Shown one piece after another: positions 2,253 to 39,981 of a stretch of 60,053 nt of DNA (the stretch's first letter is position 1; the number at the start of each line of letters is the position of its first letter). The notes under the pieces were generated by a model, which was not told the DNA's origin, made no database searches, and saw only the letters and a list, made by a program, of their open reading frames with translations. The position numbers were made by a program, and so were the translations under genes. Origin of the DNA: Candidatus Nanopelagicales bacterium. GTDB lineage: Bacteria; Actinomycetota; Actinomycetes; S36-B12. The DNA is taken from positions 12,328 through 72,380 of the forward strand of contig JAQTXL010000001.1 in assembly GCA_028688835.1 (NCBI GenBank). Direction: 5' to 3'.

Positions 2253-3845
2253 ATGCGAATCTCCCGAACCCTTGCCGTCTCCGCCGCGGCAGTAGCCCTG
2301 ATCGCCGGCGCCATCGCGCCGGCCGCCAATGCCGCCGACACCGTCGTCCCCAACGCCCAGTGGTCACTCGGCCTGGCCCCGGAGGTCACCACGAGCCCCG
2401 GCGTGCAGGGCGCCTACATCCGCCTGTGGGACATGAAGACCGCGTGGCGCGACATCAACCCGGCCCCCGGCCAGTTCGACTTCTCGATCATGGATCAGCG
2501 CGTCGCGCAGGTCGAGGCCGCCGGTGCCAAGCCGCTCATCGTGCTGGGCCTGACCCCGCAATGGGCCGCAGCAGACCCCTCCGCAGGCGACCCCCGCTGG
2601 GGCGCCGGCACCGCATCGGCTCCGGCGAACATCAGCACCTACGTCGCCTACGTCACGGCGATCATGCAGCACTACGGCAGCAGGGTCGGCGCGATCGAGG
2701 TCTGGAACGAGGCCAACCTCAAGACCTTCTGGACCGGCACGCCAGGGCAGATGGCAGACCTCACGGCAGCTGCCTACAAGGCCATCAAGTCCATCAGCCC
2801 CGGCACCGCGGTGATCGCAGCATCGTCCACGACGCGGCTCTTCGGCTCGGTCAAGAACTTCTTCGGCCCCTACGCGGCCGCGGTCAAGAAGCAGGGCTAT
2901 CCGATCGACGGCTGGACGATCCACACCTACCCGGCGGGCAACCAGGGCCCGGCCGACCGCTACCAGCAGATCCTCGAGTGGCAGGGCGTGCTCAAGAACG
3001 CAACCGACAACGACCCGGCAGCCATGGCCAAGCAGGTCTGGGACACCGAGATCAACTACGGCCTCGCCGGCCCGGGCGCGATCCCGAAGACCGACTTCGA
3101 CGCCAACGGCAGCTCGCAGTACGTTGCCCGCACGTTCGTCGACTCGCAGCGCATCGGCATCGACGCCACGTTCTGGTACATGTGGACGGCCAGCTCGTTC
3201 TCGCTGCTGGGCATCCAGATGTTCACCGGCACCACACCGTCGATCACCGCCTACAACACCACGCGCTCCTGGCTCGTCGGGGCGACCTTCAAGGGCTGCG
3301 ACACCGATGGCAATGTCCTGAAGTGCTTCTTCACCAAGAACGGTGAGGCGTTCTTCCTGGGCATGTCCAAGAACGACACCCCGGTGTCGTACTCCAAGGC
3401 AGCCACGCTGAATGTCGAGAACTGGATCGGCCAGGCCACCACGCCGGCTGGCACCGTCTCGCTCGGCACCGGACCGCAGAAGTTCACCTGCCCCGGCGCT
3501 GACAAGTCGGCCTGCACCTTCGGTGCTGCGGCCGCCGCCGGCGCGACCACGGGCGGCGCTGCATCCGGCTCAGGCGCCACGGCGGCCAAGAGCATCACCA
3601 TCAGAGCCACGAAGGGCACGTTCAACGGCAAGAAGGCCGTGATCATCACGGGCAAGGCCGTGGGCATGGAGGGCGAGCAGGTCACGCCCTTCGTCAAGCT
3701 GAAGACCGAGAGGCGTTTCACGGCACTAGCACCGGTGACGGTCGGCGCCGACGGCTCGTTCACGGCCCATCGCAACACCAGCAAGATCGCAACGGTCTAC
3801 GTCGTGAACAACGGCGTGCAGTCGAACACCGTCACGGCCAGGTAG
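2253..3845 (+). CDS. Secreted glycoside hydrolase-like protein (clan GH-A / TIM-barrel type) with Ala/Gly linker and C-terminal Ig-like domain
   Basis: Signal peptide MRISRTLAVSAAAVALIAGAIAPAANA. It has EVWNEANL (an NEP-type acid/base motif) and is a paralogue of the ORF at 25730. The exact GH family cannot be assigned by eye. Confidence 0.7.
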   Translation: MRISRTLAVSAAAVALIAGAIAPAANAADTVVPNAQWSLGLAPEVTTSPGVQGAYIRLWDMKTAWRDINPAPGQFDFSIMDQRVAQVEAAGAKPLIVLGLTPQWAAADPSAGDPRWGAGTASAPANISTYVAYVTAIMQHYGSRVGAIEVWNEANLKTFWTGTPGQMADLTAAAYKAIKSISPGTAVIAASSTTRLFGSVKNFFGPYAAAVKKQGYPIDGWTIHTYPAGNQGPADRYQQILEWQGVLKNATDNDPAAMAKQVWDTEINYGLAGPGAIPKTDFDANGSSQYVARTFVDSQRIGIDATFWYMWTASSFSLLGIQMFTGTTPSITAYNTTRSWLVGATFKGCDTDGNVLKCFFTKNGEAFFLGMSKNDTPVSYSKAATLNVENWIGQATTPAGTVSLGTGPQKFTCPGADKSACTFGAAAAAGATTGGAASGSGATAAKSITIRATKGTFNGKKAVIITGKAVGMEGEQVTPFVKLKTERRFTALAPVTVGADGSFTAHRNTSKIATVYVVNNGVQSNTVTAR

Positions 3846-3871
3846 TCAGCAGGCTCAGGTGCGCGGTGGTG

Positions 3872-4591
3872 CTACGGCATCACCGCGCGCCTGAAGCCCT
3901 CGGCCAGGCGGCCCTCAGGCAGGCCCGCAGTGGCAGCCGTGGCTGCCAGCCAGGTGCGCAGGAAGCCCGGGAGATCCTCCATGTGCGAGGTCTGGCTCAC
4001 ATGCGCCCGAAGCGCGGCGACCTTCTGGTCGAACGCATCGGTGACATCGATGAAGTGATCGGGGTCGGGGGATCCCATGACCCACACCTCGCCCACCGAC
4101 CACGCCTCCAGGCCCTCGTCGGCGAGCAGCGCCTGGTGGGCGAAGGGGTTGCGGGCATCGGGGTAGATCGCGAAGATCGCGGCCTCGCCGGAGGCCAGGT
4201 GGTCGGGGTGCGAGGCGGGGATGCGCGCCCAGTTGCGCTCAGGGGACTGGATGAGCATGAGCTGCGGCCGCACCTGGCGGATCACCCGGCTGATGTCGCG
4301 GCGCAGCTCGTGGGTCACGGTCAGCTCGCCGTCGCGGTAGCCCAGGAAGTGGATCTCGCTGACGCCCAGGGCCTGGCCGGCGGCCCGCTGCTCGGCCTGC
4401 CGGATCGCCGGGATCTGCTCGCGCGGCACTGCCGGGTCGAAGCCACCGGCGTCTCCTGAGGTGATGACGCAGTAGCTCACGCCCACGCCCGAGGCCACCA
4501 GCGTGGCCACCGTGCCGCCGGCGCCGAAGTCGACGTCGTCGGGGTGCGCCGTGACCACGAGGGCCCGTTCGAATGCCGCCATGCTGCTCAT
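3872..4591 (-). CDS. PIG-L/LmbE-family deacetylase
   Basis: Motifs VVTAHPDDVDFGAGG and HPDH are typical of LmbE/MshB-type metal-dependent deacetylases. The ORF extends to 4657, but ATG at 4591 (MSSMAAFERALVV) or at 4582 fits family N-termini better. Confidence 0.8.
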   Translation of the reverse strand: MSSMAAFERALVVTAHPDDVDFGAGGTVATLVASGVGVSYCVITSGDAGGFDPAVPREQIPAIRQAEQRAAGQALGVSEIHFLGYRDGELTVTHELRRDISRVIRQVRPQLMLIQSPERNWARIPASHPDHLASGEAAIFAIYPDARNPFAHQALLADEGLEAWSVGEVWVMGSPDPDHFIDVTDAFDQKVAALRAHVSQTSHMEDLPGFLRTWLAATAATAGLPEGRLAEGFRRAVMP

Positions 4592-4602
4592 CCCATCGTC
4601 GA

Positions 4603-4618
4603 TGTGATCCCGATCACA
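4603..4618. promoter_or_regulatory. Perfect CRP/GlxR-type palindrome TGTGA-N6-TCACA in a divergent intergenic region
   Basis: TGTGATCCCGATCACA was read directly at 4603-4618. It lies between the deacetylase (-) and the secreted peptidase (+). A second inverted repeat, GTCAC-TTCC-GTGAC, lies at 4660-4673. Confidence 0.5.
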
Positions 4619-4678
4619 CAAATAGTCCCGAGGAAGCACTCGCCACATTGGTCTCATCCGTCACTTCCGTGACACCAT

Positions 4679-6676
4679 ATGCGGGTGCTTCCCCACACCG
4701 GGCGTTTCGCCCTGCCTCAGCGACGCCGTCGCCGGGGCAGCAGCGCCGTGCTGGTGGGGGTCCTGGCAGGCACGTTACTCGTTGCCGTGCTCCCGCAGGC
4801 ACAGGCCGCCGATTCCGGCTGGACCCCGTCGTCATGGACCGGCATCGCCCAGGGCCCGCCGGTGCCCGGCGCCAACCTGCCGCCGGCCGCCACTCCCGCC
4901 AACCCCGTGCCTGTGCCGCCGCAGCTCGACACCCTGCCGACCTATGAGGGCCAGCAGGTGTGCGACCCCACGCCCAAGCCGGGCACCCAGCGGGCTGCCG
5001 ACCTCATCAAGGCCACCTTCGGTGCCAACCAGGAGGTCTGGATCTCCCGCGGCTGCGACGTCGGCGACCAGAGCGAGCACAAGGAGGGCCGTGCCCTCGA
5101 CTGGATGACCAACGTGCGCAATGCGCAGGAGCGGTCCAACGCCGAGTCCTACCTGCGCTGGCTGCTCGGCCCCGACGCCACGGGCCAGGCCTACGGCAAC
5201 GCCTACCGCATGGGCATCATGTACATCGGCTGGAACGACCGCATCTGGCGCGGGTACGACGCCGAGCGCGGCTGGGCCGAGCTCAAGGGCTGCTTCGCCA
5301 GGCCTGAGCCGAGCAGCGACACCACCTGCCATCGCAACCACATCCACATCTCCTTCACGTGGGACGGCGCCGCCGGCACGACCTCGCTGTGGACCGGGGC
5401 GGCCATCACCGCTCCCTACTGCCCGCGCGTGTCCTCGGGCGCCCGAACGCAGTACCCCGAGGCCAAGGGCGAGCTCGTCCCGATCGGCCCGGTGCGCGTG
5501 CTCGACACCCGCGCCCCGATCGGCGTCGCCCAGCGCTGCCGGCTCGAGCAGGACCGCTGGACCGGCGACTCGCATCGGCTCTTCCCCAAGATCACCGGCG
5601 TGGGAGGGATCCCTCCGAGCAATGTCGGCTCGGTGCGCGTGCGCGTGACCGCTCAGGGCTCCAACACGGCGGCCACCGTGCGCCTGTGGTCGCCCGGGCA
5701 GAACACGAGCATCCCGGTGCTGCAGGTGGGCATGAACGCTGACGCTGTCGGCGAGGCCACGGTGCCGGTCTCCACCGACGGCACCATCGCCCTGGCCACT
5801 TCTGCCGGCGCAGTCGACATCGTCGTGGAGGTGCTGGGCTACTACCGGGCCGATGCCACCGCTCCGGCCACCGTCCTGCCGAACACGACCTCGGGCTCGA
5901 CGCCCGCCGTGGTCCCGGCACCTGCGGCAGTGCCCGAGCAGGCCCCGGCGCAGACGGTCATGCCGGCCAGCCCACCGCCGCTGGCGCCTGAGCCGAGCGA
6001 GTTCCATCCCGTGGGCTCGGTGCTGGGCTACGAGTCCACCACCGACGGCCCGATCCAGCCCGGTGAGTCGCGCACGGTCGCCCTGGCCGGGCTGCCGGCC
6101 GAGGCGCGCACCGCCGTCGTGTTCGTCACCACGAAGCAGGCCGAGAAGCGCGGCGTGCTGCGCATCGGCAGATCCAGCGCCACTGAGTCCCTGCCCGTGA
6201 AGTTCCCCAAGACGCGGATGCGCAAGTCGGTGATGATCGTGCCGGTGACGGGAAGCTCGCTGGTGGTCAGCGCCTCGCCCTCGTCAGCAGTGCAGATCCG
6301 CGTGGAGGTGCTGGGCTACGGCACCAGTGACACTCCGCCGCAGGTCATCGCCCTGAGTCCGCGCCCGATCATGCAGGGCACGGTCGACCCCAGCAAGCCG
6401 CAGCTGTTCAAGGTCTCGCGCAAGTTCGGCCTGCCCGGCATGAAGAAGCTCAAGGCCGTGCTGCTGCGCGTGCAGACCTCGAAGGCCACCCAGGACGGCA
6501 CCCTGGCCGTCTACGCCTCCGGCGGCGCGCCACCGGGCACCCGCTCGGCTCCGGTGATGGCCAATGCTGGATATGCCGCGCTCGTGCTGGCGCCCGTGGG
6601 AGCCGACGGCAAGGTGCAGGTGAGCTCCACGGTGCCGGCGTCCTTCGTCGCCAACCTCGTCGGTTACGTCAAGTAG
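4679..6676 (+). CDS. Secreted LAS-type (VanY/Hedgehog-fold-like) zinc peptidase domain protein with three tandem beta-rich C-terminal modules
   Basis: Arg-rich signal peptide (RRRRRGSSAVLVGVLAGTLLVAVLPQAQA). It carries SEHKEGRALDW and HRNHIHISF, the H-x(n)-D and HxH metal ligands of the LAS fold. Three modules of about 110-130 aa follow, each ending V(E/N)(V/L)(L/V)GY. Confidence 0.65.
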   Translation: MRVLPHTGRFALPQRRRRRGSSAVLVGVLAGTLLVAVLPQAQAADSGWTPSSWTGIAQGPPVPGANLPPAATPANPVPVPPQLDTLPTYEGQQVCDPTPKPGTQRAADLIKATFGANQEVWISRGCDVGDQSEHKEGRALDWMTNVRNAQERSNAESYLRWLLGPDATGQAYGNAYRMGIMYIGWNDRIWRGYDAERGWAELKGCFARPEPSSDTTCHRNHIHISFTWDGAAGTTSLWTGAAITAPYCPRVSSGARTQYPEAKGELVPIGPVRVLDTRAPIGVAQRCRLEQDRWTGDSHRLFPKITGVGGIPPSNVGSVRVRVTAQGSNTAATVRLWSPGQNTSIPVLQVGMNADAVGEATVPVSTDGTIALATSAGAVDIVVEVLGYYRADATAPATVLPNTTSGSTPAVVPAPAAVPEQAPAQTVMPASPPPLAPEPSEFHPVGSVLGYESTTDGPIQPGESRTVALAGLPAEARTAVVFVTTKQAEKRGVLRIGRSSATESLPVKFPKTRMRKSVMIVPVTGSSLVVSASPSSAVQIRVEVLGYGTSDTPPQVIALSPRPIMQGTVDPSKPQLFKVSRKFGLPGMKKLKAVLLRVQTSKATQDGTLAVYASGGAPPGTRSAPVMANAGYAALVLAPVGADGKVQVSSTVPASFVANLVGYVK

Positions 6677-6707
6677 GGCCGTCAGCGCCGACCCCTACGA
6701 TGCATCG

Positions 6708-8921
6708 GTGACTACGGCCGCCGACCTCCTGATCGACCTCAATGAGCCCCAGCGGGCGGCGGTCGAGCACCGTGGCGGGCCGCTGCTGATCGTGGCCGGA
6801 GCCGGTTCGGGCAAGACCCGCGTGCTCACCCGCCGCATCGCGCACCTGCTCGCCACCGGCGATGCCCGCCCGGGCGAGATCCTGGCCATCACGTTCACGA
6901 ACAAGGCCGCTGGCGAGATGAAGGAGCGCGTCGCCGAGCTCGTCGGCCCGAGCGCGAAGACGATGTGGGTCTCCACCTTCCACAGCGCCTGCGTGCGCAT
7001 CCTGCGGGCCGAGTCCAAGCGCCTGGGCATCTCGAGCAGCTTCACCATCTACGACCAGGCCGACTCCCTGCGCCTGATGACCATGGTCATCCGCGACCTC
7101 GACCTCGATGCCAAGCGGTTCACGCCGCGCAGCTTCCTGGCGCAGGTCTCCAATCTCAAGAACGAGCTCATCGACGAGGAGACCTACGCCTCTCGGGCGA
7201 GCAACGTGATGGAGGAGACGCTGGCCAGCGCCTACCGCGACTACCAGGCGCGCCTGCGCCGCGCCAGCGCCTTCGACTTCGACGACCTCATCAGCAGCAC
7301 CGTCGCGCTGCTGCAGGTGTTCCCCGACGTGGCCGAGCACTACCGCCGCAGGTTCCGCCAGATCATGGTCGATGAGTACCAGGACACCAACCATGCGCAG
7401 TACCAGCTGGTCAAGGAGCTCGTCGGCCACGACACCCCTGAGCTCAAGGCCGGCGAGCTGTGCGTGGTGGGCGACGCCGACCAGTCGATCTACGCCTTCC
7501 GCGGCGCCACCATCCGCAACATCGAGGAGTTCGAGCGCGACTACCCCAATGCGCGCACGATCCTGCTCGAGCAGAACTACCGCTCCACCCAGACCATCCT
7601 CACCGCGGCCAATGCGGTCATCACGCGCAACCAGGGCCGTCGCGCCAAGAGCCTCTGGACCGACTCCGGCCAGGGCGAGCCCATCGTCATCTACGTCGCC
7701 GACGACGAGCACGACGAGGCCTCGTTCATCGCGCGCGAGATCGACGACCTCTCCGACGACCACGGGGTCAAGCCCAGCGATGTCGCGGTGTTCTACCGCA
7801 CCAATGCGCAGTCGCGATCGGTCGAAGATGTCTTCATCCGCGTCGGCATGCCCTACAAGGTCGTCGGCGGCGTGCGCTTCTATGAGCGCAAGGAGGTGCG
7901 CGACGCCATCGCCTACCTGCGCGCGCTGGCCAACCCCGACGACGACGTCTCGCTGCGACGCATCCTCAACGTGCCCAAGCGCGGCATCGGCGATCGGGCC
8001 GAGTCGATGGTCGAGGCCTTCGCCCAGCGCGAGCGCATCTCGTTCTGGGCCGCCCTCGAGCGCGCCGAGGAGGCGCCGGGCATGGCCACGCGCTCGATCG
8101 GCAGCATCGCCCCCTTCGTCGAGATGATGCGCGGCCTGCGCACGCTCGTCGAGTCCGGCGCCGACTCGGCCACGATCCTGCAGGCCGTGCTCGAGCAGTC
8201 GGGCTATGTCGCCGAGCTCACCCACTCCACGGACCCGCAGGACGAGGGCCGCCTCGAGAACCTCGCCGAGCTGGAGTCGGTCGCCCAGGAGTTCACCGAC
8301 GAGAACCCCGAGGGCACGCTCGTCGACCTGCTCGAGCGCATCGCCCTGGTCGCCGATGCCGACTCGATCCCCGATCACGAGGGCGGCGTGGTCACCCTCA
8401 TGACCCTGCACACGGCCAAGGGCCTGGAGTTCCCGGTCGTCTTCCTCACCGGCATGGAGGACGGCGTCTTCCCGCACATGCGCTCCCTCGGCGACCCCAA
8501 GGAGCTCGAGGAGGAGCGCCGACTGGCCTACGTGGGCATCACCCGGGCCCGCGAGCGCCTCTACCTGAGCCGCTCGATGATGCGCTCGGCCTGGGGCGCC
8601 CCCGCCTACAACCCGGCCTCACGCTTCCTCGACGAGATCCCCGAGGAGGCGATCAGCTGGCGCCGCGAGGAGCCGGTGCGCCAGGCCTTCACGCCGTCGG
8701 TGTCGCGCAGCAGCAGCGCCCTGCGCCTGGGTGATCGCGTCGTGGGCACCGGCCCGGTCATCAACCTGTCGGCGGGCGACCGCGTGACCCACAGCAAGTT
8801 CGGCCTCGGCACCGTCGTGAGCACCTCGGGCAGCGGCGACAAGGCCGACGCCACCATCGACTTCGGCTCGGCCGGGGTCAAGCGGCTGCTGCTGCGCTAT
8901 GCACCGGTGGAGAAGCTGTAG
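6708..8921 (+). CDS. pcrA: ATP-dependent DNA helicase PcrA/UvrD
   Basis: 737 aa. Walker A is AGAGSGKT, with DEYQDTN and other SF1 helicase motifs such as TLHTAKGLEFPVVF and YVGITRA. GTG start. Confidence 0.95.
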   Translation: MTTAADLLIDLNEPQRAAVEHRGGPLLIVAGAGSGKTRVLTRRIAHLLATGDARPGEILAITFTNKAAGEMKERVAELVGPSAKTMWVSTFHSACVRILRAESKRLGISSSFTIYDQADSLRLMTMVIRDLDLDAKRFTPRSFLAQVSNLKNELIDEETYASRASNVMEETLASAYRDYQARLRRASAFDFDDLISSTVALLQVFPDVAEHYRRRFRQIMVDEYQDTNHAQYQLVKELVGHDTPELKAGELCVVGDADQSIYAFRGATIRNIEEFERDYPNARTILLEQNYRSTQTILTAANAVITRNQGRRAKSLWTDSGQGEPIVIYVADDEHDEASFIAREIDDLSDDHGVKPSDVAVFYRTNAQSRSVEDVFIRVGMPYKVVGGVRFYERKEVRDAIAYLRALANPDDDVSLRRILNVPKRGIGDRAESMVEAFAQRERISFWAALERAEEAPGMATRSIGSIAPFVEMMRGLRTLVESGADSATILQAVLEQSGYVAELTHSTDPQDEGRLENLAELESVAQEFTDENPEGTLVDLLERIALVADADSIPDHEGGVVTLMTLHTAKGLEFPVVFLTGMEDGVFPHMRSLGDPKELEEERRLAYVGITRARERLYLSRSMMRSAWGAPAYNPASRFLDEIPEEAISWRREEPVRQAFTPSVSRSSSALRLGDRVVGTGPVINLSAGDRVTHSKFGLGTVVSTSGSGDKADATIDFGSAGVKRLLLRYAPVEKL

Positions 8922-8935
8922 GGCGTCGGTGCCAC

Positions 8936-8968
8936 TTGACATTCAACAAGTCTGAATGCATATTCAGA
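8936..8968 (+). promoter_or_regulatory. AT-rich promoter/operator candidate upstream of the wHTH-NTase/HEPN pair
   Basis: TTGACA lies at 8936-8941, and the inverted repeat TCTGAAT-GCAT-ATTCAGA at 8951-8968. The patch is locally AT-rich in an otherwise roughly 70% GC context, immediately before a GTG at 8972. Confidence 0.4.
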
Positions 8969-8971
8969 GAT

Positions 8972-9589
8972 GTGAAATCGCCTCAACTCCTGCCCCTGCT
9001 GCGCTCCCAGACCCAGGGCGACCTGCTCGCGCTGCTGTTCCTGCACCCGCAGCAGGAATACTCGCTCACCGAGATCGCCCGGCGGATCGGCGTCTCGACC
9101 TCAGGTGTGCACCATGAGGTGACCCGGCTCCTGGATGCCGGATTCGTCGCCGATCGGCGCGTGGGCAACACGCGCCTGGTCAGGGCGAATGCCAGCACAG
9201 TGGTGGCCGAGCCGCTGACCCAGTTGCTCGCCGTGACCTATGGGCCGCTCCCGGTCCTGCACGACCTTCTCGTCGATGAGCCCCTGGTGGACGAGGCCTT
9301 CATCTACGGCTCGTGGGCGGCGCGCTACCTGGGTGTCCCCGGTCCAGTCCCCGAAGACGTCGATGTCCTCGTGGTGGGCACCGCAGATGCGGACCGCCTT
9401 GACGACATCGCCAGCGCCGCCAGTGAGGTGCTGCATCGGGATGTCAGCATCCGTCGTGCCCGTCGGGACGCCTGGGCGCTGGCTCGAGCGGGGGACGGGA
9501 GCCAGCCGTTCCTCAGCACCGTCGCGCAAGGTCCACGCGTGCTCCTTGATGTCGGAGCGCTGGATGCCGCGACGGAAGGTGAGCGATGA
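8972..9589 (+). CDS. Winged-helix (ArsR/MarR-like) domain fused to a minimal nucleotidyltransferase (MNT-type antitoxin-like)
   Basis: wHTH segment LTEIARRIGVSTSGVHHEVTRLLDAGFV. NTase signature YGSWA...EDVDVLVVG (GS...DxD). The ORF opens at TTG 8936, and I prefer GTG 8972 because 8936-8968 looks like promoter/operator. Its end overlaps the next ORF by 4 nt. Confidence 0.6.
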   Translation: MKSPQLLPLLRSQTQGDLLALLFLHPQQEYSLTEIARRIGVSTSGVHHEVTRLLDAGFVADRRVGNTRLVRANASTVVAEPLTQLLAVTYGPLPVLHDLLVDEPLVDEAFIYGSWAARYLGVPGPVPEDVDVLVVGTADADRLDDIASAASEVLHRDVSIRRARRDAWALARAGDGSQPFLSTVAQGPRVLLDVGALDAATEGER

Positions 9590-10056
9590 GGTGGAACGCG
9601 GGACGCGACGTCCTCGACGCGATGCTGCTCGCGAATCCGCCGAGGCTTCAGCGGGTGGCACCCAGCCGCGAGCACGCGGAGCGGCTCATTGCCCAGGCTC
9701 GTGCGCACCTCGCGTCGGCGTCGCTGCTGGCCAGCGATGATCCGGAAGGCGCCTATGCGCTGCTCTACGACGCAGCCCGGAAGTCGCTGACGGCGATCCT
9801 CGAGAACCAAGGACTTCGTCCGACCTCGGCGGGCGGCCATGTAGCGGTCTACGACGCAGTCCGCGCACAGCTGGACCCACCGATGGGCAGCACCATTCGT
9901 CCCTTCGATCGCATGCGTCGCAATCGACGTGACGCGGAGTATCCGCCGAGCGATGCTCCGTCCATCGACGTGGACATGGTGCGCGAGGATCTCCCGAAGA
10001 GCCGGGCGCTCGTCGACATCGCAGCGCAAGTGCTCGATGAGATGAGCCCGTTCTAG
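9586..10056 (+). CDS. HEPN-domain protein (SAV_6107-like family), putative toxin partner
   Basis: All-helical 156-aa ORF. The patterns A..LA.A..LL..DP.GAY.LLYDAARK and GLRPTSAGGHVAVYDAV are as in actinobacterial HEPN partners of MNTs. The motif region RRNRRDAEY lacks the canonical His. ATGA overlap with the upstream gene. Confidence 0.55.
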   Translation: MRWNAGRDVLDAMLLANPPRLQRVAPSREHAERLIAQARAHLASASLLASDDPEGAYALLYDAARKSLTAILENQGLRPTSAGGHVAVYDAVRAQLDPPMGSTIRPFDRMRRNRRDAEYPPSDAPSIDVDMVREDLPKSRALVDIAAQVLDEMSPF

Positions 10057-33210: not shown

Positions 33211-34194
33211 CTAGCGTGGCTGAGGCGCGGGCACGGCGGCAATCGCATCCGCGATGATTGAGGCACCGCTGGTGCCACGTGATTCGGAGTCGACGTCAAC
33301 GATGAGCCTGTGTGCCAGCACTGCTCCTGCAAGCTTCTGCACGTCACCTGGGAGGACGAATCCGCGATCGTACAGGAGTGCCCGGGCGCGGGCAGCCCGG
33401 AGCAGTGCGATCGACCCGCGAGGCGAGGCTCCCAGCTGCACCCCCGGGGCTGTGCGTGTCCATGCAACAAGGCGGACGATGTAGTCGATGACCGGCGGGC
33501 TGACTTCCACGGATCGTGCCGCATGGATCAGCGCGTCAATTCCTGCGGCGTCGATGACGGGTGCGATCTGGCTGATCGCTGCACCGTGGTGATGATCCGA
33601 CACGACGGTGATCTCGGACTGGAGATCGGGGTATCCCAGCTGTCCTCGAATCAGGAAGCGATCGAGCTGTGCTTCGGGCAGGGCGTAGGTGCCTGTCATG
33701 TCGACTGGGTTCTGCGTTGCGATCACCATGAAGGGGACGGGCAGCCGTTGGGTCGTGCCGTCGATGGAGACGGTGCGCTCCTCCATGGCCTCGAGGAGAG
33801 CAGACTGCGTGCGAGGCGTTGCCCGGTTGATCTCGTCGGCGAGCACGATCGATGCGAATATGGGTCCGGGGTGGAAGACGAAGGTGGATGTCCCTGGATC
33901 CCAGACCGAGACTCCGGTAATGTCCGATGGCATCAAGTCGGGCGTGAATTGGATGCGGTTCCAGTGCACCGATGTGGCCTGGGCAAGAGCCCGAGCCAGC
34001 GACGTCTTGCCGACGCCCGGGACGTCATCGAGCAGCAGGTGCCCTTCGGCGATCAAGCAAATGACGGCGAGTTCAATGGCCTCCGGCTTCCCGCGGACGA
34101 ATTGTCCGACGGCGGCAACGATGTCAAGGGCAGTGGCAGTTGCGCTCCTGGGACTCTGACTGTCGTCGGCAGCACCCGCATTCGTCGATCCCAT
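33211..34194 (-). CDS. MoxR-family AAA+ ATPase
   Basis: Walker A is DDVPGVGKTSLARALA and Walker B is VLADEINRATPRTQSALLEAMEERTVSIDG. The start is uncertain (ATG at 34194, 34224 or 34239). Confidence 0.9.
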   Translation of the reverse strand: MGSTNAGAADDSQSPRSATATALDIVAAVGQFVRGKPEAIELAVICLIAEGHLLLDDVPGVGKTSLARALAQATSVHWNRIQFTPDLMPSDITGVSVWDPGTSTFVFHPGPIFASIVLADEINRATPRTQSALLEAMEERTVSIDGTTQRLPVPFMVIATQNPVDMTGTYALPEAQLDRFLIRGQLGYPDLQSEITVVSDHHHGAAISQIAPVIDAAGIDALIHAARSVEVSPPVIDYIVRLVAWTRTAPGVQLGASPRGSIALLRAARARALLYDRGFVLPGDVQKLAGAVLAHRLIVDVDSESRGTSGASIIADAIAAVPAPQPR

Positions 34195-34289
34195 GGGAGT
34201 GCATGTTACGCGCCTGAAGGCCATGGTTCGCAGTGGCAACGTCGCGTTGGTATCCCAAGATCAGCAGCGCTCGTGCTCCCGAGGCTCGC

Positions 34290-36026
34290 TCAGCCGGGCC
34301 CGACGGACGCATCGGCAGGCGGTGTGGCAGCGTCGGCGAACTGAACCAGCTCGGCTGTGTGACGAATACGCCAGCGGCCGCGCCCTGTGCCATCGGGACC
34401 CAGGCTTCGCGCTACCAGATACAGCCGCGAGATCGCGGCATCGACGTCGACCGTGTTGCTCAAGGGGGCAGGCGCGCCACGGAAAGGAGCGGTGATTCTC
34501 TGCAGATGCCGGGGTGAGGCCAGTGCCCTGCGCGGGAGGTGCGGCTGCCCAGTGAAGTCGATGAGATCTGCATGATGGCTGTCCAAGAGCTCCCGCACCT
34601 GGGCCGGCGATTCGAGCGCTGACAGGTCGAGTGATTCCAGCAGGCGTGCAGCAGTCGAAGGGTCGGGGGCCTGCAGGATCCGCGCAAGCTCAGGATTGAG
34701 GTCGAGACGCTGGGCCCGCGTAACGAGAGCGTGCCAATCTGCCACCAGGGGCAGGATGCCCCGCGCGCCGATTGCTGATGGCAGGTACGACCTGAGCCGC
34801 GCCTCCGAGTAGAGACCGTCGTCGGCGAAGACGAGCATTGCATCGCAGACGCCTCGGTCGCGCAACTGCGAGAGAGGCAACTCGATGGACTCATCCTGGG
34901 CGAGAGTCGGCCAGATGCCGAGCACCGTGGTGCCGCCCTCGAAGTCCACTCCGCTGATGACAACAAGGCGTGTGGCTTCAGGCGCCGAAGAATCTCGGAT
35001 CACCGGCTGAGCCGCAGTCAGCGTGATGACGGCATACCGCCGGTCCAAGGGTCGCGTCAGCCACTCCTCCTGCTGCACCAGGCAGTCACGCACCAGGCCA
35101 GCGATCTGAGCAGGCTGGACAGCGATGCCGTGTCGTTTGCCGAGCTGCCTTGCGATCTTCGCAGGCCTCATGCGCTGTGCAGAGAGACGCAATGCCGAGC
35201 TGGTCAAGTCCACCGTCGGTACGCTCAGCTGCGCATCCTGGTGTCGCTCGGATTCACCCGGGTGCCTTGGCGCGCGCGCTCGGAAGGTCTCGAATGCGTC
35301 GTGCAGTGCATCGTGATTGCGGATCAGCGCAAGATCGCTGTCCAGCACTTGTTTATCGGTCACCATTTGCACCGGCATCGTGTCGAGCCCGAGCAACGCG
35401 AAGATCCGGTCTGCTGTTTCCTGCCACTCCGCGACGAGTGACTCGTAGGAAATGGAGAGGTAGTTCGGGCCGGCGAACAGCGTCGCGAAGTAGTCGTCGC
35501 TGCGCTGCATCTGCTCGAAGAACTCGAGCGCTCTTCCGACGCGAATGGAGAATGGGCGCACCGGTGGCCGACTCGAGCGGTCGCTCGACCATTGCACCCA
35601 CACTTTGGTGCGCTTGGCGAGCTCTAGTGAGATCAGAACACTCAGGTAGTCGTCTCGACGAATGTGCAGAACTGCTGCGTCTGGGTAGTGCTCACGAATT
35701 CGGGGGAGAAGATCTGCAGCACCGGACCCTCGAACGTGCTCGGCGAAGACCTTGAGCCCGATGACGGCCGGAGGTGGAACCTGAGACTCGGGTGCCGAGA
35801 ACACATACTCGTCAAGGAAGTCGATTGCGTCTTCTTTGCGAGGGTTGAACCAGCGCTTCTCGGTGCCCCCGAGCGCATGCTGGCCTCGGCGCTCGTTCTT
35901 CACCGGATGGAAGAGCTCACCGTGCATTTCGATCGACGGGTGCTGGAGCAGGAGTGTGCTGAGCAATGTGCTGCCCGTGCGGGGGCTTCCGACGACGAAC
36001 AGTGGCAGAGGGTGATCACTCATCAA
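34290..36026 (-). CDS. Stf0-like sulfotransferase (about aa 1-250) fused in frame to a degenerate IS256-type transposase-derived region (about aa 275-560)
   Basis: The 5'-PSB loop is GSPRTGSTL and the 3'-PB-like motif is LHIRRDDYLSVLIS. After residue 275, QEEWLTRPLDRRYAVITLTAAQPVIRD, VISGVDFEGGTTVLGIW, LRDRGVCDAMLVFADDGL and SPRHLQRITAPFRG are collinear with IS256 transposase motifs (W..RPL..YP.v.lDA..vKvR, v.iGv..eG.r.vLG, L..RGL..v.lv.sDg..GL, TTN.iE.ln...R). Confidence 0.65.
   Translation of the reverse strand: MMSDHPLPLFVVGSPRTGSTLLSTLLLQHPSIEMHGELFHPVKNERRGQHALGGTEKRWFNPRKEDAIDFLDEYVFSAPESQVPPPAVIGLKVFAEHVRGSGAADLLPRIREHYPDAAVLHIRRDDYLSVLISLELAKRTKVWVQWSSDRSSRPPVRPFSIRVGRALEFFEQMQRSDDYFATLFAGPNYLSISYESLVAEWQETADRIFALLGLDTMPVQMVTDKQVLDSDLALIRNHDALHDAFETFRARAPRHPGESERHQDAQLSVPTVDLTSSALRLSAQRMRPAKIARQLGKRHGIAVQPAQIAGLVRDCLVQQEEWLTRPLDRRYAVITLTAAQPVIRDSSAPEATRLVVISGVDFEGGTTVLGIWPTLAQDESIELPLSQLRDRGVCDAMLVFADDGLYSEARLRSYLPSAIGARGILPLVADWHALVTRAQRLDLNPELARILQAPDPSTAARLLESLDLSALESPAQVRELLDSHHADLIDFTGQPHLPRRALASPRHLQRITAPFRGAPAPLSNTVDVDAAISRLYLVARSLGPDGTGRGRWRIRHTAELVQFADAATPPADASVGPG
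34345..35205 (-). mobile_element. IS256/Mutator-family transposase remnant (5'-truncated, catalytic residues degenerate)
   Basis: See the previous feature. The first DDE Asp position reads T (TLTA instead of lDA) and the Glu position reads Q (HLQRI). I did not find inverted repeats. Confidence 0.6.
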
Positions 36027-36816
36027 GGACTTCGTCGATGTAAGCGGGATCTACGGCAGTCGCCCCTCCTGCGAGGCCATCAACCCAAGCCGTGTATTCA
36101 TCGACGACTTCCTTGGCGGGGCCATGCGCGCGCACGCGTCCTTGATCGAGCCAGAGCACCGTCTCGGCTGTGTTCGCGATGCCGGCGCCGTGCGAGGACA
36201 TGACCACGATCTCGGCGTTGTTGTGAAATTCTCGTAGGCGCGCTGCAGCCCTCTGCGCAAATGCCGCATCGGCAGTGGCGACTCCTTCGTCCATCACCAG
36301 GATCTGCGGCGTCAGGCTTGTGAGGATTGAGAAGCGCAAACGTGCGCGCATACCGCTGGAGTAGGTCGCCACCGGATTGCGAAGTCGCACACCAAGCCCC
36401 GAGAAATCTGCGATCTCATCCACACGTGCACGCATCGCCTTGGGGGTTTCGCCCAGCAGCACGCCGGTCATGATCACGTTCTCGTAGCCTGAGAGCCCGA
36501 AGTCCAGGCCAGCACCTGACCCTCCGAGCAGTGAGAAGACCTTGCCTTCCAGTCGAACTCTGCCGTGCGTAGGTGGGAGTGCTCCTGCCATCACGCGCAG
36601 GAGGGTCGACTTGCCCGCGCCGTTGACACCGATCACGCCCAATCGCGTTCCGGGGGTAAGTGTGAGCGACAGGTCATCGATCGCGGCCAGCGTCGTGCTC
36701 GGTGCATTGATGCGCTTGCGGCCAAGACCTGTCAGGAACTTCCGCTTGAGATTGGCGCCCTCGATGGTGAGCAGGTTGTAGACGACGGAAATGCCGTCGA
36801 TCTCGATGCGGCTCAT
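36016..36816 (-). CDS. Polysaccharide/teichoic-acid-type ABC exporter ATP-binding protein (Wzt/TagH-like, no C-terminal glycan-binding domain)
   Basis: ATG 36816 (MSRIEIDGISVVYNL) overlaps the permease stop (ATGA). Walker A is GVNGAGKSTLL, the signature is YSSGMRARL and Walker B is ILVMDEGVATAD. About 266 aa. Confidence 0.88.
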   Translation of the reverse strand: MSRIEIDGISVVYNLLTIEGANLKRKFLTGLGRKRINAPSTTLAAIDDLSLTLTPGTRLGVIGVNGAGKSTLLRVMAGALPPTHGRVRLEGKVFSLLGGSGAGLDFGLSGYENVIMTGVLLGETPKAMRARVDEIADFSGLGVRLRNPVATYSSGMRARLRFSILTSLTPQILVMDEGVATADAAFAQRAAARLREFHNNAEIVVMSSHGAGIANTAETVLWLDQGRVRAHGPAKEVVDEYTAWVDGLAGGATAVDPAYIDEVLDE

Positions 36817-37616
36817 TCTGCGACCCAGTAGGGGATCCGTGCGCGTGACTTGGTGAAGACCACGATTCCCAGTGCCAGATTCCCGACAGCGAGCAGGGTG
36901 GTCACCACGTAGGGCGCCAGACCATGGCTGGTGCCAAGAATAGGGTCGCGAAAGGCAAGGAGCTGATAGGTCAGCGGGTTCCACCAAGCCAGCCAGGCAC
37001 GGTCATTGGTCGTGACTTGGTCGATGGACCAGAAGATGGGTGTCAGGAAGAACATGAGCCGCATCACCATGCTCACCAGCGGACCGACATCCCGGAAGCG
37101 TGCTGCCAGAGGGCCGAGCCACAGCCCGACTCCGATGCTCGATGCAACAATCAGGAAGGTAGCAAGGACCGACAGTCCCCATGCGAGAGTGAAGGGGATG
37201 GAGAAGAACAGGGCGATGACGATGATCACGACCGCGTCGTGCAGGAAGTCGATGAACTGCACTGCGTTGCCCTGCATCGGGTAGGTCGAGTACGGGCGTT
37301 GTGAGGTGGAAAGCTGAGCGCCGGCTTGCACGTAGGTGGAACTGCCGACATTGATTCCGCCGGCGATGAGTCCGAAGATGATGAAGCCCAGTCCGACATA
37401 CGGAACCGCGTTCTTGAGATCACCCCCGCCGAGACCGACGCGCAGGAACGACAGACCGAACACGAAGAAGACAGTGCTCAGGGTGAGCCACCAGGGTCCG
37501 AGAATGGTTCGTCGGTAGCGGTTTCCAACCGAGATCAGCGCGGCCAGCGTCCAGATCCGGCGCTCTCGCCAAGTGGCTTTGATATCGGCTCGGGCCGCGG
37601 CCCACTGGTCGCGCAT
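36813..37616 (-). CDS. ABC-2 polysaccharide exporter permease (Wzm/TagG-like)
   Basis: The pattern NRYRRTILGPWWLTLSTVFFV is typical of Wzm/TagG, with six hydrophobic helices. The start is uncertain (ATG 37616 or GTG 37667). The upstream part of ORF 36813-38006 overlaps the RgpF-WbsX gene. Confidence 0.85.
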   Translation of the reverse strand: MRDQWAAARADIKATWRERRIWTLAALISVGNRYRRTILGPWWLTLSTVFFVFGLSFLRVGLGGGDLKNAVPYVGLGFIIFGLIAGGINVGSSTYVQAGAQLSTSQRPYSTYPMQGNAVQFIDFLHDAVVIIVIALFFSIPFTLAWGLSVLATFLIVASSIGVGLWLGPLAARFRDVGPLVSMVMRLMFFLTPIFWSIDQVTTNDRAWLAWWNPLTYQLLAFRDPILGTSHGLAPYVVTTLLAVGNLALGIVVFTKSRARIPYWVAE

Positions 37617-37656
37617 GGGTGCATCAACGGGCACCACGATGGTGACTTCTGTTGGG

Positions 37657-39981
37657 TCAATGGCCACGGAAGGCACGATAGCTGGAAGGGAAGATGTCGG
37701 GCAGTTCGCCGCCCTCCAGATGCGCGCCCTCTGCCCACTCGTTCCAGGCATTGATGAACACCAAGTTCGGGTCGTGCTCGGGGTTGTAGCGAGTTGCCCG
37801 CTGCAACCAGCGACGGAACGTGACTGGATTAGAGCCATGGAAGACATAGGCGTCGATCCCGCGCCGGGCAGTGTTGTCCCATCCTGGGAATACTGTTGGG
37901 TAGACAGGGACGTGCACCCCCTCAGGTGCGGCCAGCGCAGGTGAGTCCGCCGCCGTGTCGTATGAGTAGACATCGCCGGTGAGGCCTGCAACTCCACCTG
38001 GGACACAGTCCACGATGCTGGTCAGGGAGACTCCGCTTCCGGGCGGGAAGCTGATCAGCCCGTCGAGTTGGTCGAGTGCGCTCGGGTCGACATCTCCGAA
38101 GTCTCGTGATGGAAGCACGCCGAGGATGTGTAGGCCCTCAAGCCCGTCTTCCTCCGCCAGATGACGCCAGATCGCAAGCGCAGCCTTGAGGTCCGGCAGC
38201 AGGTCAAGCCGGTAGACAAGGAGCAGTGGCTTCTCGTCTACGGTGACATAACGAGGGTCGAATAGCGCAGGGCGGATGTCGTCGTAGAACCGGTGCTCCC
38301 AGCCCTGTGTGTAGGTCTGGCTGATGAGGACATCCATGTCAAGGCCGTCCCAGCGCCTCGTCCACGGCTCATTCGCCCAGCACAACGCGAAGGGCAGGGG
38401 AATGCTCGGATCCGCCAGGAGATTGTCCAACGGTGTGCGCAGGGCACGGCGTCCGTCGAACCAGTAGTGGTAGAACACCAGTGCGTCGATGCCCATAGCG
38501 CGGACGTCATCAGCCTGCCTTCGAAGTTCCTCACCGTCTGCCAGGTCGTAGTAGCCGACGTGCTCAGGAGGCGTGATCGGCTGCCGGTGGCCTGCATAGA
38601 GCGGGAGTGCACGGCGGACGTTGTGCCAGTCGGTGAAGCCCTCCCCCCAGAATTCGTCATTGTCGGCGTTCGCGTAGTACTGCGGCAGGTAGAACGCGAG
38701 GAGCTTGGCTGGTGCAGGCGGGTGCCGCTGCAGTTCCCTCGTTCTCGACGGCACATCCAGCGTCTCCACGAGATCCATGCCGCCCACTGTGGACATGACT
38801 CCGACCATGCGTTCCAGGGCATGTGCCGTCGTACCGTCGTACTGGCCGCCCTCCACCTCGAAGTCATTCTCGTCCAGGCCCAGTTCGGCCAACTGCTCAA
38901 GCAGCCACGGCCGGCACCAGAACATGGAACCGGCAGGGAACGCGAGCTCGTCGGGGTCGAAGGCCATGGGCAGCCGTGAAGCCAGCAGCTCAACGATGCC
39001 CTGGTTGCTTCCCCAGTGATCCGGCCCGGAGACGTGTCCGGTGGGCAGCACGATCCCCACGGTGCGATCGGCATCCAGCAGATCGACAGTTCGCTTGATG
39101 GCATCTGGAGACTCGAGGATTCCGTCAAGGAGCTCCAGGCGCCACGTGTCACCGTCGAGCCGATGCTCGCTCTTCTTGGTGTGCACCTTCGCCACAGCCG
39201 TGTACCCGCGCAGCAGGCCTTCGTTGACCACGTGAATGAGCGGTGCCCAGTCGCGTCCACGGTTGGGCACGAGTTCGATGCGCGCATTGACGTGGCGGCG
39301 CGAGATTGCCGGGATGGCGGACTCCGCCGTGCCCTGCGTGACCGTGACGATCAGGTCGAAGGGCTCATGGATGCGCGCTAGGCGGTCTTCAATATCCGCC
39401 CAGAGCTCTGGATAGTGCACATGTGCGACCACCACGATACGAGGAAGCACGGTATTGGCGTCCCGCGGTCGCCGCGCTGGAGGCGCCGGTCGCCGATCGG
39501 CCCCGGCACGGCGCAACGGGGATGTCTCAGGGAGCAGGTGGGCGGCAGGTGCGAACAAACCCGACAGTCGGAGTGTGGCGGCAGCGCTCCTGCGCCTGCG
39601 TCGCCTGGCGACCCACCGTCGTGCGCGCAGCCTGGCGATCCGCACTCCGGCGGCGAAGACCCGCAGAGGGCTGGTGACCCTCCATGACGTGCTCGTGAGC
39701 ACCTGCGACATCTGCTTGCGGTACTCCACCACGGTGAGTTCCAGGTCGGCGATGCGCTGGCGCTGGCGCTGATTCTCCGCGAGCAAGCCGTCGATTTCGA
39801 GGGACGAGGCGGTGGAGGCGATGTCGTGAGGCGCTGCTGTACCGTCGGCCGCATTCAACGCGGTCGTCTGATGGGCAGTGATGCGCTGGGCATGCTCGGG
39901 CACCGCAGACACTTCCCCCCAGTAACTGACTGCCCCAACCTCGAGGCAGGACCTGTCGCATTGGTTCCAGCAATCTACCAT
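37657..39981 (-). CDS. Fusion protein: coiled-coil + RgpF (rhamnan synthesis protein F) domain + WbsX-type (GH99-like fold) glycosyltransferase domain
   Basis: RgpF-like segment: VVVAHVHYPELW...ELVPNRGRDWAPL...AKVHTKKS...FPAGSMFW. WbsX-like segment: LLAFYLPQYY...DEFWGEGFTDW...YHYWF...LCWANEPWTRRWDG. The leader contains the motif TSTSWRVTSPLRVF after a coiled coil. The start was taken as ATG 39981, because the upstream 190 codons of the 964-aa ORF overlap the divergent gene. Confidence 0.8.
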   Translation of the reverse strand: MVDCWNQCDRSCLEVGAVSYWGEVSAVPEHAQRITAHQTTALNAADGTAAPHDIASTASSLEIDGLLAENQRQRQRIADLELTVVEYRKQMSQVLTSTSWRVTSPLRVFAAGVRIARLRARRWVARRRRRRSAAATLRLSGLFAPAAHLLPETSPLRRAGADRRPAPPARRPRDANTVLPRIVVVAHVHYPELWADIEDRLARIHEPFDLIVTVTQGTAESAIPAISRRHVNARIELVPNRGRDWAPLIHVVNEGLLRGYTAVAKVHTKKSEHRLDGDTWRLELLDGILESPDAIKRTVDLLDADRTVGIVLPTGHVSGPDHWGSNQGIVELLASRLPMAFDPDELAFPAGSMFWCRPWLLEQLAELGLDENDFEVEGGQYDGTTAHALERMVGVMSTVGGMDLVETLDVPSRTRELQRHPPAPAKLLAFYLPQYYANADNDEFWGEGFTDWHNVRRALPLYAGHRQPITPPEHVGYYDLADGEELRRQADDVRAMGIDALVFYHYWFDGRRALRTPLDNLLADPSIPLPFALCWANEPWTRRWDGLDMDVLISQTYTQGWEHRFYDDIRPALFDPRYVTVDEKPLLLVYRLDLLPDLKAALAIWRHLAEEDGLEGLHILGVLPSRDFGDVDPSALDQLDGLISFPPGSGVSLTSIVDCVPGGVAGLTGDVYSYDTAADSPALAAPEGVHVPVYPTVFPGWDNTARRGIDAYVFHGSNPVTFRRWLQRATRYNPEHDPNLVFINAWNEWAEGAHLEGGELPDIFPSSYRAFRGH

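Follow-up and report, generated by a model that had tools for sequence, protein, structure and literature searches.

The fusion gene and its reading frame

The window analysed here is a stretch of 60,053 nucleotides from a Candidatus Nanopelagicales bacterium (contig JAQTXL010000001.1, positions 12,328 to 72,380), and this report concerns one of its genes, in which a sulfotransferase runs in frame into an apparently dead relative of the IS256 family of insertion sequence (IS) transposases. The open reading frame (ORF) of 578 codons at 34290..36026 which the original prediction had described is real, with the correction that it lies on the minus strand; the plus-strand translation of the same span is full of stops. 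A TTG codon at 36026 immediately precedes an ATG at 36023, and the ORF is open from either. The likely start is the ATG, giving a predicted product of 577 amino acids (aa). This ATG overlaps the TGA of the upstream ATP-binding cassette (ABC) ATPase gene within ATGAGTGA, and the indexed protein P0002 (577 aa) also has its first residue there. Residue positions throughout follow the ATG numbering. The fusion gene proper therefore occupies 34290..36023 (minus strand), with its stop codon at 34290-34292.

Over the 984 nt of its C-terminal part the gene contains no stop in the coding frame, against 4-10 in each of the other five frames, so that the open frame is beyond chance. The G+C fractions at the three codon positions (GC1/GC2/GC3) are 0.73/0.52/0.73 in this part, similar to the 0.66/0.41/0.73 of the N-terminal part. 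A scan for promoters and terminators around the fusion gene revealed none above shuffled expectation.

The sulfotransferase domain

Residues 1-252 (35268..36023, minus strand) form a NodH/Stf0-like domain by profile, motif and fold matches, which agrees with the earlier claim of a Stf0-like sulfotransferase in the first ~250 residues. The Pfam family Sulfotransfer_3 (PF13469) matches residues 8-215 (E 7.6e-18; 66 bits, cut-off 27), and the Stf0 family Sulphotransf (PF09037) also matches the N-terminal half, at 28.7 bits against a cut-off of 22. A sequence search of the PDB found NodH (9vki) at E 1e-5, while Foldseek comparison of the predicted structure with the PDB returned, after the ISCth4 transposase discussed below, bacterial and animal sulfotransferases including 3rnl and 1tex. 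Two motifs are invariant in fused and stand-alone relatives, a PRTGST loop that starts at residue 14 and the HIRRDDYLSVLIS block containing R123; among the fused and ABC-fused relatives, PRTGST and the H-x2-R...S block (H120, R123, S132) are likewise invariant. From general knowledge of sulfotransferases we take the loop and the block to be the motifs that bind 3'-phosphoadenosine 5'-phosphosulfate (PAPS) and its 3'-phosphate. The N-terminal half is predicted to be an intact-looking, PAPS-dependent NodH/Stf0-like sulfotransferase. With the carbohydrate sulfotransferases of this type (9vki, 1tex, 3rnl) it shares profiles, folds, the PAPS-loop motif and a setting in a glycan gene cluster; it differs in that the known enzymes are stand-alone proteins of ~250-290 aa, and its identity to the solved structures is low.

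Since the genome encodes an adenosine 5'-phosphosulfate (APS) kinase domain (E 1e-61), the organism is predicted to be able to make PAPS. This domain (L017, G000:C100:795-1241) is situated within a 612-aa open frame, perhaps a CysN/CysC-type fusion, and is the likely PAPS source.

The transposase-derived domain

The C-terminal half had been described as ~285 residues collinear with the core of IS256/Mutator transposases, and profile analysis bears this out: Transposase_mut (PF00872) matches residues 274-517 over profile positions 103-347 of 379 (E 5e-17; 62.3 bits, cut-off 21). The NCBIfam equivalog transpos_IS256 (NF033543) gave 63 bits against a cut-off of 150, with positions 64-334 of 338 matched. 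The profiles point to IS256 homology without full family membership. The ISCth4 transposase (PDB 6xg8) matches residues 276-464 by sequence at E 5.7e-9 and is also the top Foldseek match in the PDB to the predicted structure (E 6.6e-13). In ISCth4 a dimerisation domain (residues 1-56) is followed by the NDB domain, a helix-turn-helix (HTH) domain (108-165) and an RNase H-like catalytic domain; the catalytic residues are D175, D241 and E348, and a helical insertion domain (261-325) carries C262/H265 (PMC7780238). The HTH domains build a secondary dimer interface, the NDB is the main domain of IS256-type transposases for recognition of the terminal inverted repeats (TIRs), and the NDB and dimerisation domains together account for ISCth4 residues 1-108 (PMC7780238).

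The fusion protein holds all of these parts from the end of the NDB onward and is without the first ~100 transposase residues, that is, the dimerisation and NDB domains. On the minus strand, the fusion junction (residues 253-271, 35211..35267) lies where the stand-alone relatives end and has a predicted local distance difference test score (pLDDT) below 50. It is followed by a transposase-derived HTH (residues 272-322, 35058..35210), the counterpart of the ISCth4 HTH, which closes with W-x2-R-P-L. The RNase H-like core, comprising strands 1-4 (residues 323-405, 34809..35057), retains the VLGxW and RG motifs. What remains of the alpha-helical insertion domain (residues 406-505, 34509..34808) has low pLDDT, and the C-terminal helices of the transposase fold (residues 506-566, 34326..34508) include a conserved LxLxARSxxP...W block. 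The AlphaFold model, built from a six-sequence input, is of only moderate quality (mean pLDDT 64); its reasonably confident parts are the sulfotransferase domain and, both well formed, the HTH (273-322) and the beta core (329-400).

Alignment with three genuine transposases places T336 (35016-35018) at the first catalytic aspartate and Q508 (34500-34502) at the catalytic glutamate, the two DDE substitutions named in the original prediction; the second aspartate is retained as D401 (34821-34823), and G422/P425 stand at the CxxH motif. The first aspartate and CxxH are both absent in 7/7 fused members of the family described below, while the second aspartate is kept in most. At the glutamate position five members have Q, R or N; the glutamate itself is present only in L013/L016, both of which are without the first aspartate. 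Because catalytic residues are lost in every member, the C-terminal domain is predicted to be incapable of working as a DDE transposase. Compared with IS256 transposases such as ISCth4 (6xg8/6xgw/6xgx; PMC7780238), the fusion thus has in common the HTH, the RNase H-like core, the helical insertion region, the C-terminal helices and the motifs W-x2-RPL, VLGxW, RG and the C-terminal L-x-L...W block. It differs in that a sulfotransferase replaces the N-terminal dimerisation and NDB domains, the triad reads T/D/Q, CxxH is lost, and the domain is single-copy, has no TIRs and sits behind an enzyme.

A conserved family of fused proteins

A word-index search with the whole protein returned three JGI metagenome proteins (P0003, P0004 and P0006) of 535-540 aa, ~40% identical to the query, two of which span 98% of it. 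When the C-terminal parts alone were used as a profile against 1.84 billion representatives, five family clusters were found at E <=1e-39, namely P0004, the window protein, the 222-aa fragment P0009, P0010 and P0011. The next matches, separated from these by a gap, are genuine IS256 transposases at E 1e-20 or weaker. Against PF00872 the latter reach 188-423 bits; among the fused members with a recorded hit most reach only ~19-21 bits, at or under the cut-off of 21. With the C-terminal profile, the word-index search yielded P0006 and a single transposase and no more. A metagenome scan gave the DNA of two further members, L014 (525 aa, on a Sargasso-type AACY contig) and L016 (552 aa), the latter being the full-length form of P0010.

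In total, six other metagenomic proteins have the same architecture and fusion point as the window protein, with C-terminal identities of 25-33%; P0003, P0004, P0006, L014 and L016 are 525-552 aa long and share its junction. In all members the sulfotransferase closes near F-x-x-F and is followed by a P-R-x-R which aligns with the PRDR of real IS256 transposases. The family numbers ~7 sequences, and all homologues are metagenomic. In a maximum-likelihood tree of seven fused domains and 29 genuine transposases, the fused domains occupy one side of a branch with support of 100/99, and the window copy is sister to the other six (99/95). A deletion of 35-40 residues in the insertion domain is common to those six and agrees with this topology. 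The original prediction had allowed that the two-domain architecture might turn out to be conserved as a described family; conserved it is, but our literature searches brought up neither an exapted IS256 domain in a bacterium nor the present sulfotransferase-IS256 fusion.

Selection on the C-terminal half

The six sequenced genes have no in-frame stop in their C-terminal parts, compared with 1-17 in each other frame. By the Nei-Gojobori method the ratio of nonsynonymous to synonymous substitution rates (dN/dS) for the C-terminal half is 0.31 between L011 and L012 (bootstrap 95% confidence interval 0.23-0.41) and 0.24 between L013 and L016 (dS saturated), values which are approximate as dS is near or past saturation in both pairs. 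The corresponding values for the sulfotransferase domain are 0.23 (L011/L012) and 0.09 (L013/L016). By sub-region (junction, HTH, core, insertion remnant and C-terminal helices) all values fall at 0.17-0.35. The family-invariant columns are the fold-defining IS256 motifs W-x2-R-x-L, VLGxW, RG and ARSxxP...W; the active-site residues are not among them. To judge from these gene comparisons, the transposase-derived half is kept open under purifying selection.

Origin of the fusion and alternative explanations

We favour the reading that a single old fusion took place and that the transposase domain was exapted as a non-catalytic module of a glycan sulfotransferase; we put the probability of this reading as a whole at about 0.8. 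It corresponds to one of two interpretations in the original prediction, that an inactivated transposase domain has been recruited as a C-terminal module, and draws support from the conserved architecture, the single origin and the selection. The likely origin, which would be old, involves two steps. An IS256-family element would first have inserted just downstream of the sulfotransferase gene, the last in its operon. An in-frame deletion would then have removed the sulfotransferase stop, the left IS end and ~100 transposase codons, and so have joined sulfotransferase codon ~252 to transposase codon ~100. The C-terminal 300-odd residues would derive from the HTH and RNase H-like domain of an actinobacterial-type IS256 transposase.

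The other interpretation in the original prediction was a recent accident, in which an IS256 element inserting at the 3' end of the gene would have cost the sulfotransferase its stop codon and left a pseudogene-like passenger that is open only by coincidence. Stop-poor, GC-rich DNA would permit this, the window copy is the most transposase-like of the family (62 versus ~20 bits), and such fusions do occur. P0020 (625 aa), in which a TPR-repeat protein runs directly into a strong Transposase_mut part (profile 101-373, PF00872 E 1e-70), looks like a recent accidental fusion. For the present state of the gene, however, we reject the accident and regard it as hardly credible, because the same junction occurs in six other proteins, all sequenced copies are open in frame, the C-terminal half gives dN/dS of 0.31 and 0.24 in the two pairs compared, and the genome holds no other PF00872 copy. 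The distance among these proteins (25-33% identity), the monophyly of the fused domains and the 4-10 stops in each of the other five frames also argue against it. The genome, which is 96.7% complete, has no other PF00872 match, so that there were no intact IS256 copies with which to align the remnant, and the best genuine transposases among 60 relatives, G009 and G030 open frames of 423 and 434 aa, share no more than 26-27% identity with residues 278-565. None of these 60 relatives has an orthologue of the fusion. A scan of GTDB species genomes with the family alignment gave no match, and one with the Wzt of the surrounding gene cassette gave only distant ABC ATPases, <=39% identical over their length. 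No TIRs were found around the transposase part beyond chance frequency. A 25-nt inverted repeat of 80% identity (34331-34355 / 35194-35218) does bracket it, but lies inside coding sequence, cannot be an IS end and is attributed to chance; inverted repeats of equal quality are present in 8/24 other 2.5-kb segments of the window.

Several observations weigh against the favoured reading, and some of them also speak for an old fusion whose tail is functionless and slowly eroding; what looks like selection would then merely keep the tail of an essential enzyme from misfolding or becoming toxic. The C-terminal half is the fastest-evolving part of the cassette, at 25-33% identity versus 44-55% for the sulfotransferase domain and 64-72% for Wzm/Wzt. 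The insertion domain is 35-40 residues shorter in the other six members, residues 402-505 in this region are poorly modelled, with low pLDDT, and the net charge and isoelectric point (pI) of the C-terminal domain vary widely across the family (pI 4.9-11.0). There are ~15 close stand-alone sulfotransferases of 253-278 aa, 49-54% identical to the window N-terminal domain and nested among or sister to the fused forms, and one of them, the L015 enzyme (258 aa, L015:3954-4730, on a Ga0181563 contig), occurs in an identical RgpF/WbsX-Wzm-Wzt synteny; loss is evidently tolerated, and the module therefore appears to be dispensable in some lineages. In addition, the dN/dS values come from pairs of relatives, the window lineage having no close relative, the monophyly of such fast-evolving domains could owe something to long-branch effects, and the full-length fusion product is a predicted one. 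An eroding tail is nevertheless unlikely. A single stop codon would discard it free of cost, yet ~275-325 codons have remained open in 6/6 deeply diverged genes; every sub-region, HTH and C-terminal helices included, shows dN/dS of 0.17-0.35; and W-x2-RPL, VLGxW, RG and ARSxxP..W are invariant.

The stand-alone L015 enzyme offers a natural comparison that lacks the module. A tblastn search downstream of it detected no transposase remnant; there, a small secreted protein is followed by what appears to be the beginning of a membrane protein, with a long transmembrane helix at its N-terminus. In a tree of the sulfotransferase domain the fused forms make up a basal grade around a shallow stand-alone cluster, with weak support, and in an approximately unbiased (AU) test monophyly of the fused forms was not rejected (p = 0.18). 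One gain of the module suffices, whether the stand-alone forms lost it or never had one.

The glycan cassette

The fusion gene follows genes with ABC2_membrane and ABC_tran domains (Wzm-Wzt) in the metagenome loci L011, L012 and L013, with stops overlapping starts. In L011 and L012 an RgpF/WbsX glycosyltransferase precedes Wzm-Wzt, and the same four-gene order is found on the minus strand of the window. Here the cassette begins with the RgpF/WbsX two-domain glycosyltransferase (37657..39981, start approximate) and continues with the Wzm-type ABC-2 permease (36813..37673, start approximate and taken from homologue alignment) and the Wzt-type ABC ATPase of ~266 aa (36016..36816, start inferred from the L011/L013 Wzt alignment), the stop of which overlaps the sulfotransferase start. 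By gene order, the fusion gene would be the last, translationally coupled gene of a cassette for a cell-surface glycan exported by an ABC transporter. The three upstream products of the window are 63-72% identical to those of the metagenome loci versus 42-56% to those of a congeneric genome. This setting points to the presence, in aquatic bacteria with small, high-GC genomes, of cell-wall glycans that are sulfated and exported by ABC transporters. In L011 and L012, DUF4012 proteins follow the fusion gene.

The C-terminus of O-antigen Wzt proteins often bears a glycan-binding domain. In P0005 (532 aa, from a Logan assembly) a Wzt-type ABC ATPase carries at its C-terminus a close relative of the sulfotransferase domain (50% identity), a layout which suggests that the sulfotransferase acts at the exporter; the P0005 fusion shows that physical coupling of sulfotransferase to exporter occurs in the clade. 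A more distant relative, P0007 (543 aa), combines the same type of sulfotransferase with a C-terminal S-adenosylmethionine (SAM) methyltransferase in a layout that resembles chain-terminating enzymes.

Possible role of the module

Reuse of transposases for host functions is well documented in eukaryotes, as in SETMAR, FHY3/FAR1 and RAG1. In SETMAR, a primate protein, a SET methyltransferase is joined to a captured mariner transposase (Hsmar1), and FHY3/FAR1/MUSTANG are domesticated Mutator transposases of plants belonging to the same Mutator/IS256 superfamily. To our knowledge few bacterial cases exist, and dead IS fragments in bacteria are usually counted as debris. Like the present gene, SETMAR arose when a host enzyme gene captured a downstream transposase through stop loss, and in it as in FHY3/FAR1/MUSTANG transposition is lost and the transposase part is under purifying selection. 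The eukaryotic proteins have, however, retained the DNA-binding domain for chromatin or transcriptional roles, whereas the fusion described here is bacterial, its partner is a glycan sulfotransferase and its main DNA-binding domain has been discarded.

The Mutator-derived FHY3/FAR1 and the mariner-derived SETMAR bring to mind a further possibility, that the domain has remained active on nucleic acids as an enzyme, or regulates by binding specific DNA sequences, and so ties glycan sulfation to DNA transactions or to gene regulation; these eukaryotic proteins work in this way. The HTH fold is kept and well modelled, its segment is more basic in the family (charge 0 to +6) than in 26 real transposases (mean -3.5), and the second aspartate persists in most members. 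We consider this possibility very unlikely all the same: the first aspartate and CxxH have gone in all members, the TIR-recognising NDB and the dimerisation domain (ISCth4 1-108, PMC7780238) are missing, members differ in the overall charge of the domain, and the surrounding sequence yielded neither repeated candidate binding sites nor TIR-like sequences.

If the domain is instead an exapted, non-catalytic module, as we prefer, it may, with low confidence, keep the sulfotransferase oligomeric or attach it to the machinery of glycan assembly and export; alternatively it may bind a polyanion, be it DNA, glycan or a glycan carrier. Docking or oligomerisation is pure inference, drawn from the P0005 fusion, the translational coupling to Wzt and the secondary dimer interface formed by the ISCth4 HTH (PMC7780238). 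A tentative and rather doubtful elaboration is that the dead IS256 domain is an adaptor which docks or oligomerises the sulfotransferase on the Wzm-Wzt exporter or polymerase complex and so controls where or when the chain is sulfated, as in capping or the setting of length. If true, this would be a bacterial counterpart of the SETMAR type of enzyme-transposase exaptation, with the domain used outside DNA work. The WbdD chain terminators of ABC-transporter-dependent O-antigens offer a parallel, being modifying enzymes encoded beside wzm/wzt and having several domains with a non-catalytic C-terminal part that could position the enzyme. WbdD differs in being a kinase/methyltransferase with a coiled-coil ruler; the AlphaFold model of the fusion contains no long coiled coil, and its C-terminal part has a transposase fold.

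The family would be significant in that several deeply diverged lineages have kept a dead IS256 core, in frame and under selection, attached to a glycan sulfotransferase. For annotation, the lesson is that a biosynthetic gene with a "transposase" Pfam hit is not necessarily a pseudogene or the site of an insertion. The existence of stand-alone, Wzt-fused and transposase-fused versions of one enzyme makes it a tractable case for the role of a non-catalytic RNase H-like module.

The MoxR operon and the proposed recombination joint

The MoxR AAA+ ATPase gene (33211..34239, minus strand), first of a MoxR-DUF58 operon, begins 51 nt downstream of the fusion gene and lies outside it. The original prediction held that the transposase remnant marks a likely recombination joint between the glycan locus and this operon. 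Our analysis gives this claim no support. A block of lower GC content (61-65%) extends from ~32 to 54 kb (32000-54000), versus 67-71% in the left flank (the right window end and left flank together are at 66-71%); it spans both the glycan region and the MoxR-DUF58 operon, crossing the junction with no break at the sulfotransferase stop. In the congener G002 (L024, G002:C13:650000-668000, ~2930-9933) genes for Wzm, a probable Wzt and a membrane protein of 395 aa come after MoxR-DUF58 on its strand, and RgpF/WbsX adjoins the MoxR-DUF58 pair divergently; neither sulfotransferase nor transposase remnant is present there. The remnant is moreover older than the divergence of the lineages that carry it. 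Because the G002 operon is interleaved with Wzm-Wzt beside RgpF/WbsX, the MoxR operon appears to be a regular neighbour of the glycan locus in the genus, with the gene order reshuffled. No evidence connects this reshuffling with the ancient transposase remnant. The low GC content, together with the closer similarity of the cassette to metagenome contigs than to the congener, is consistent with a horizontally exchanged, serotype-like cassette. The MoxR chaperone operon, lying among glycan export genes, may be functionally linked to them.

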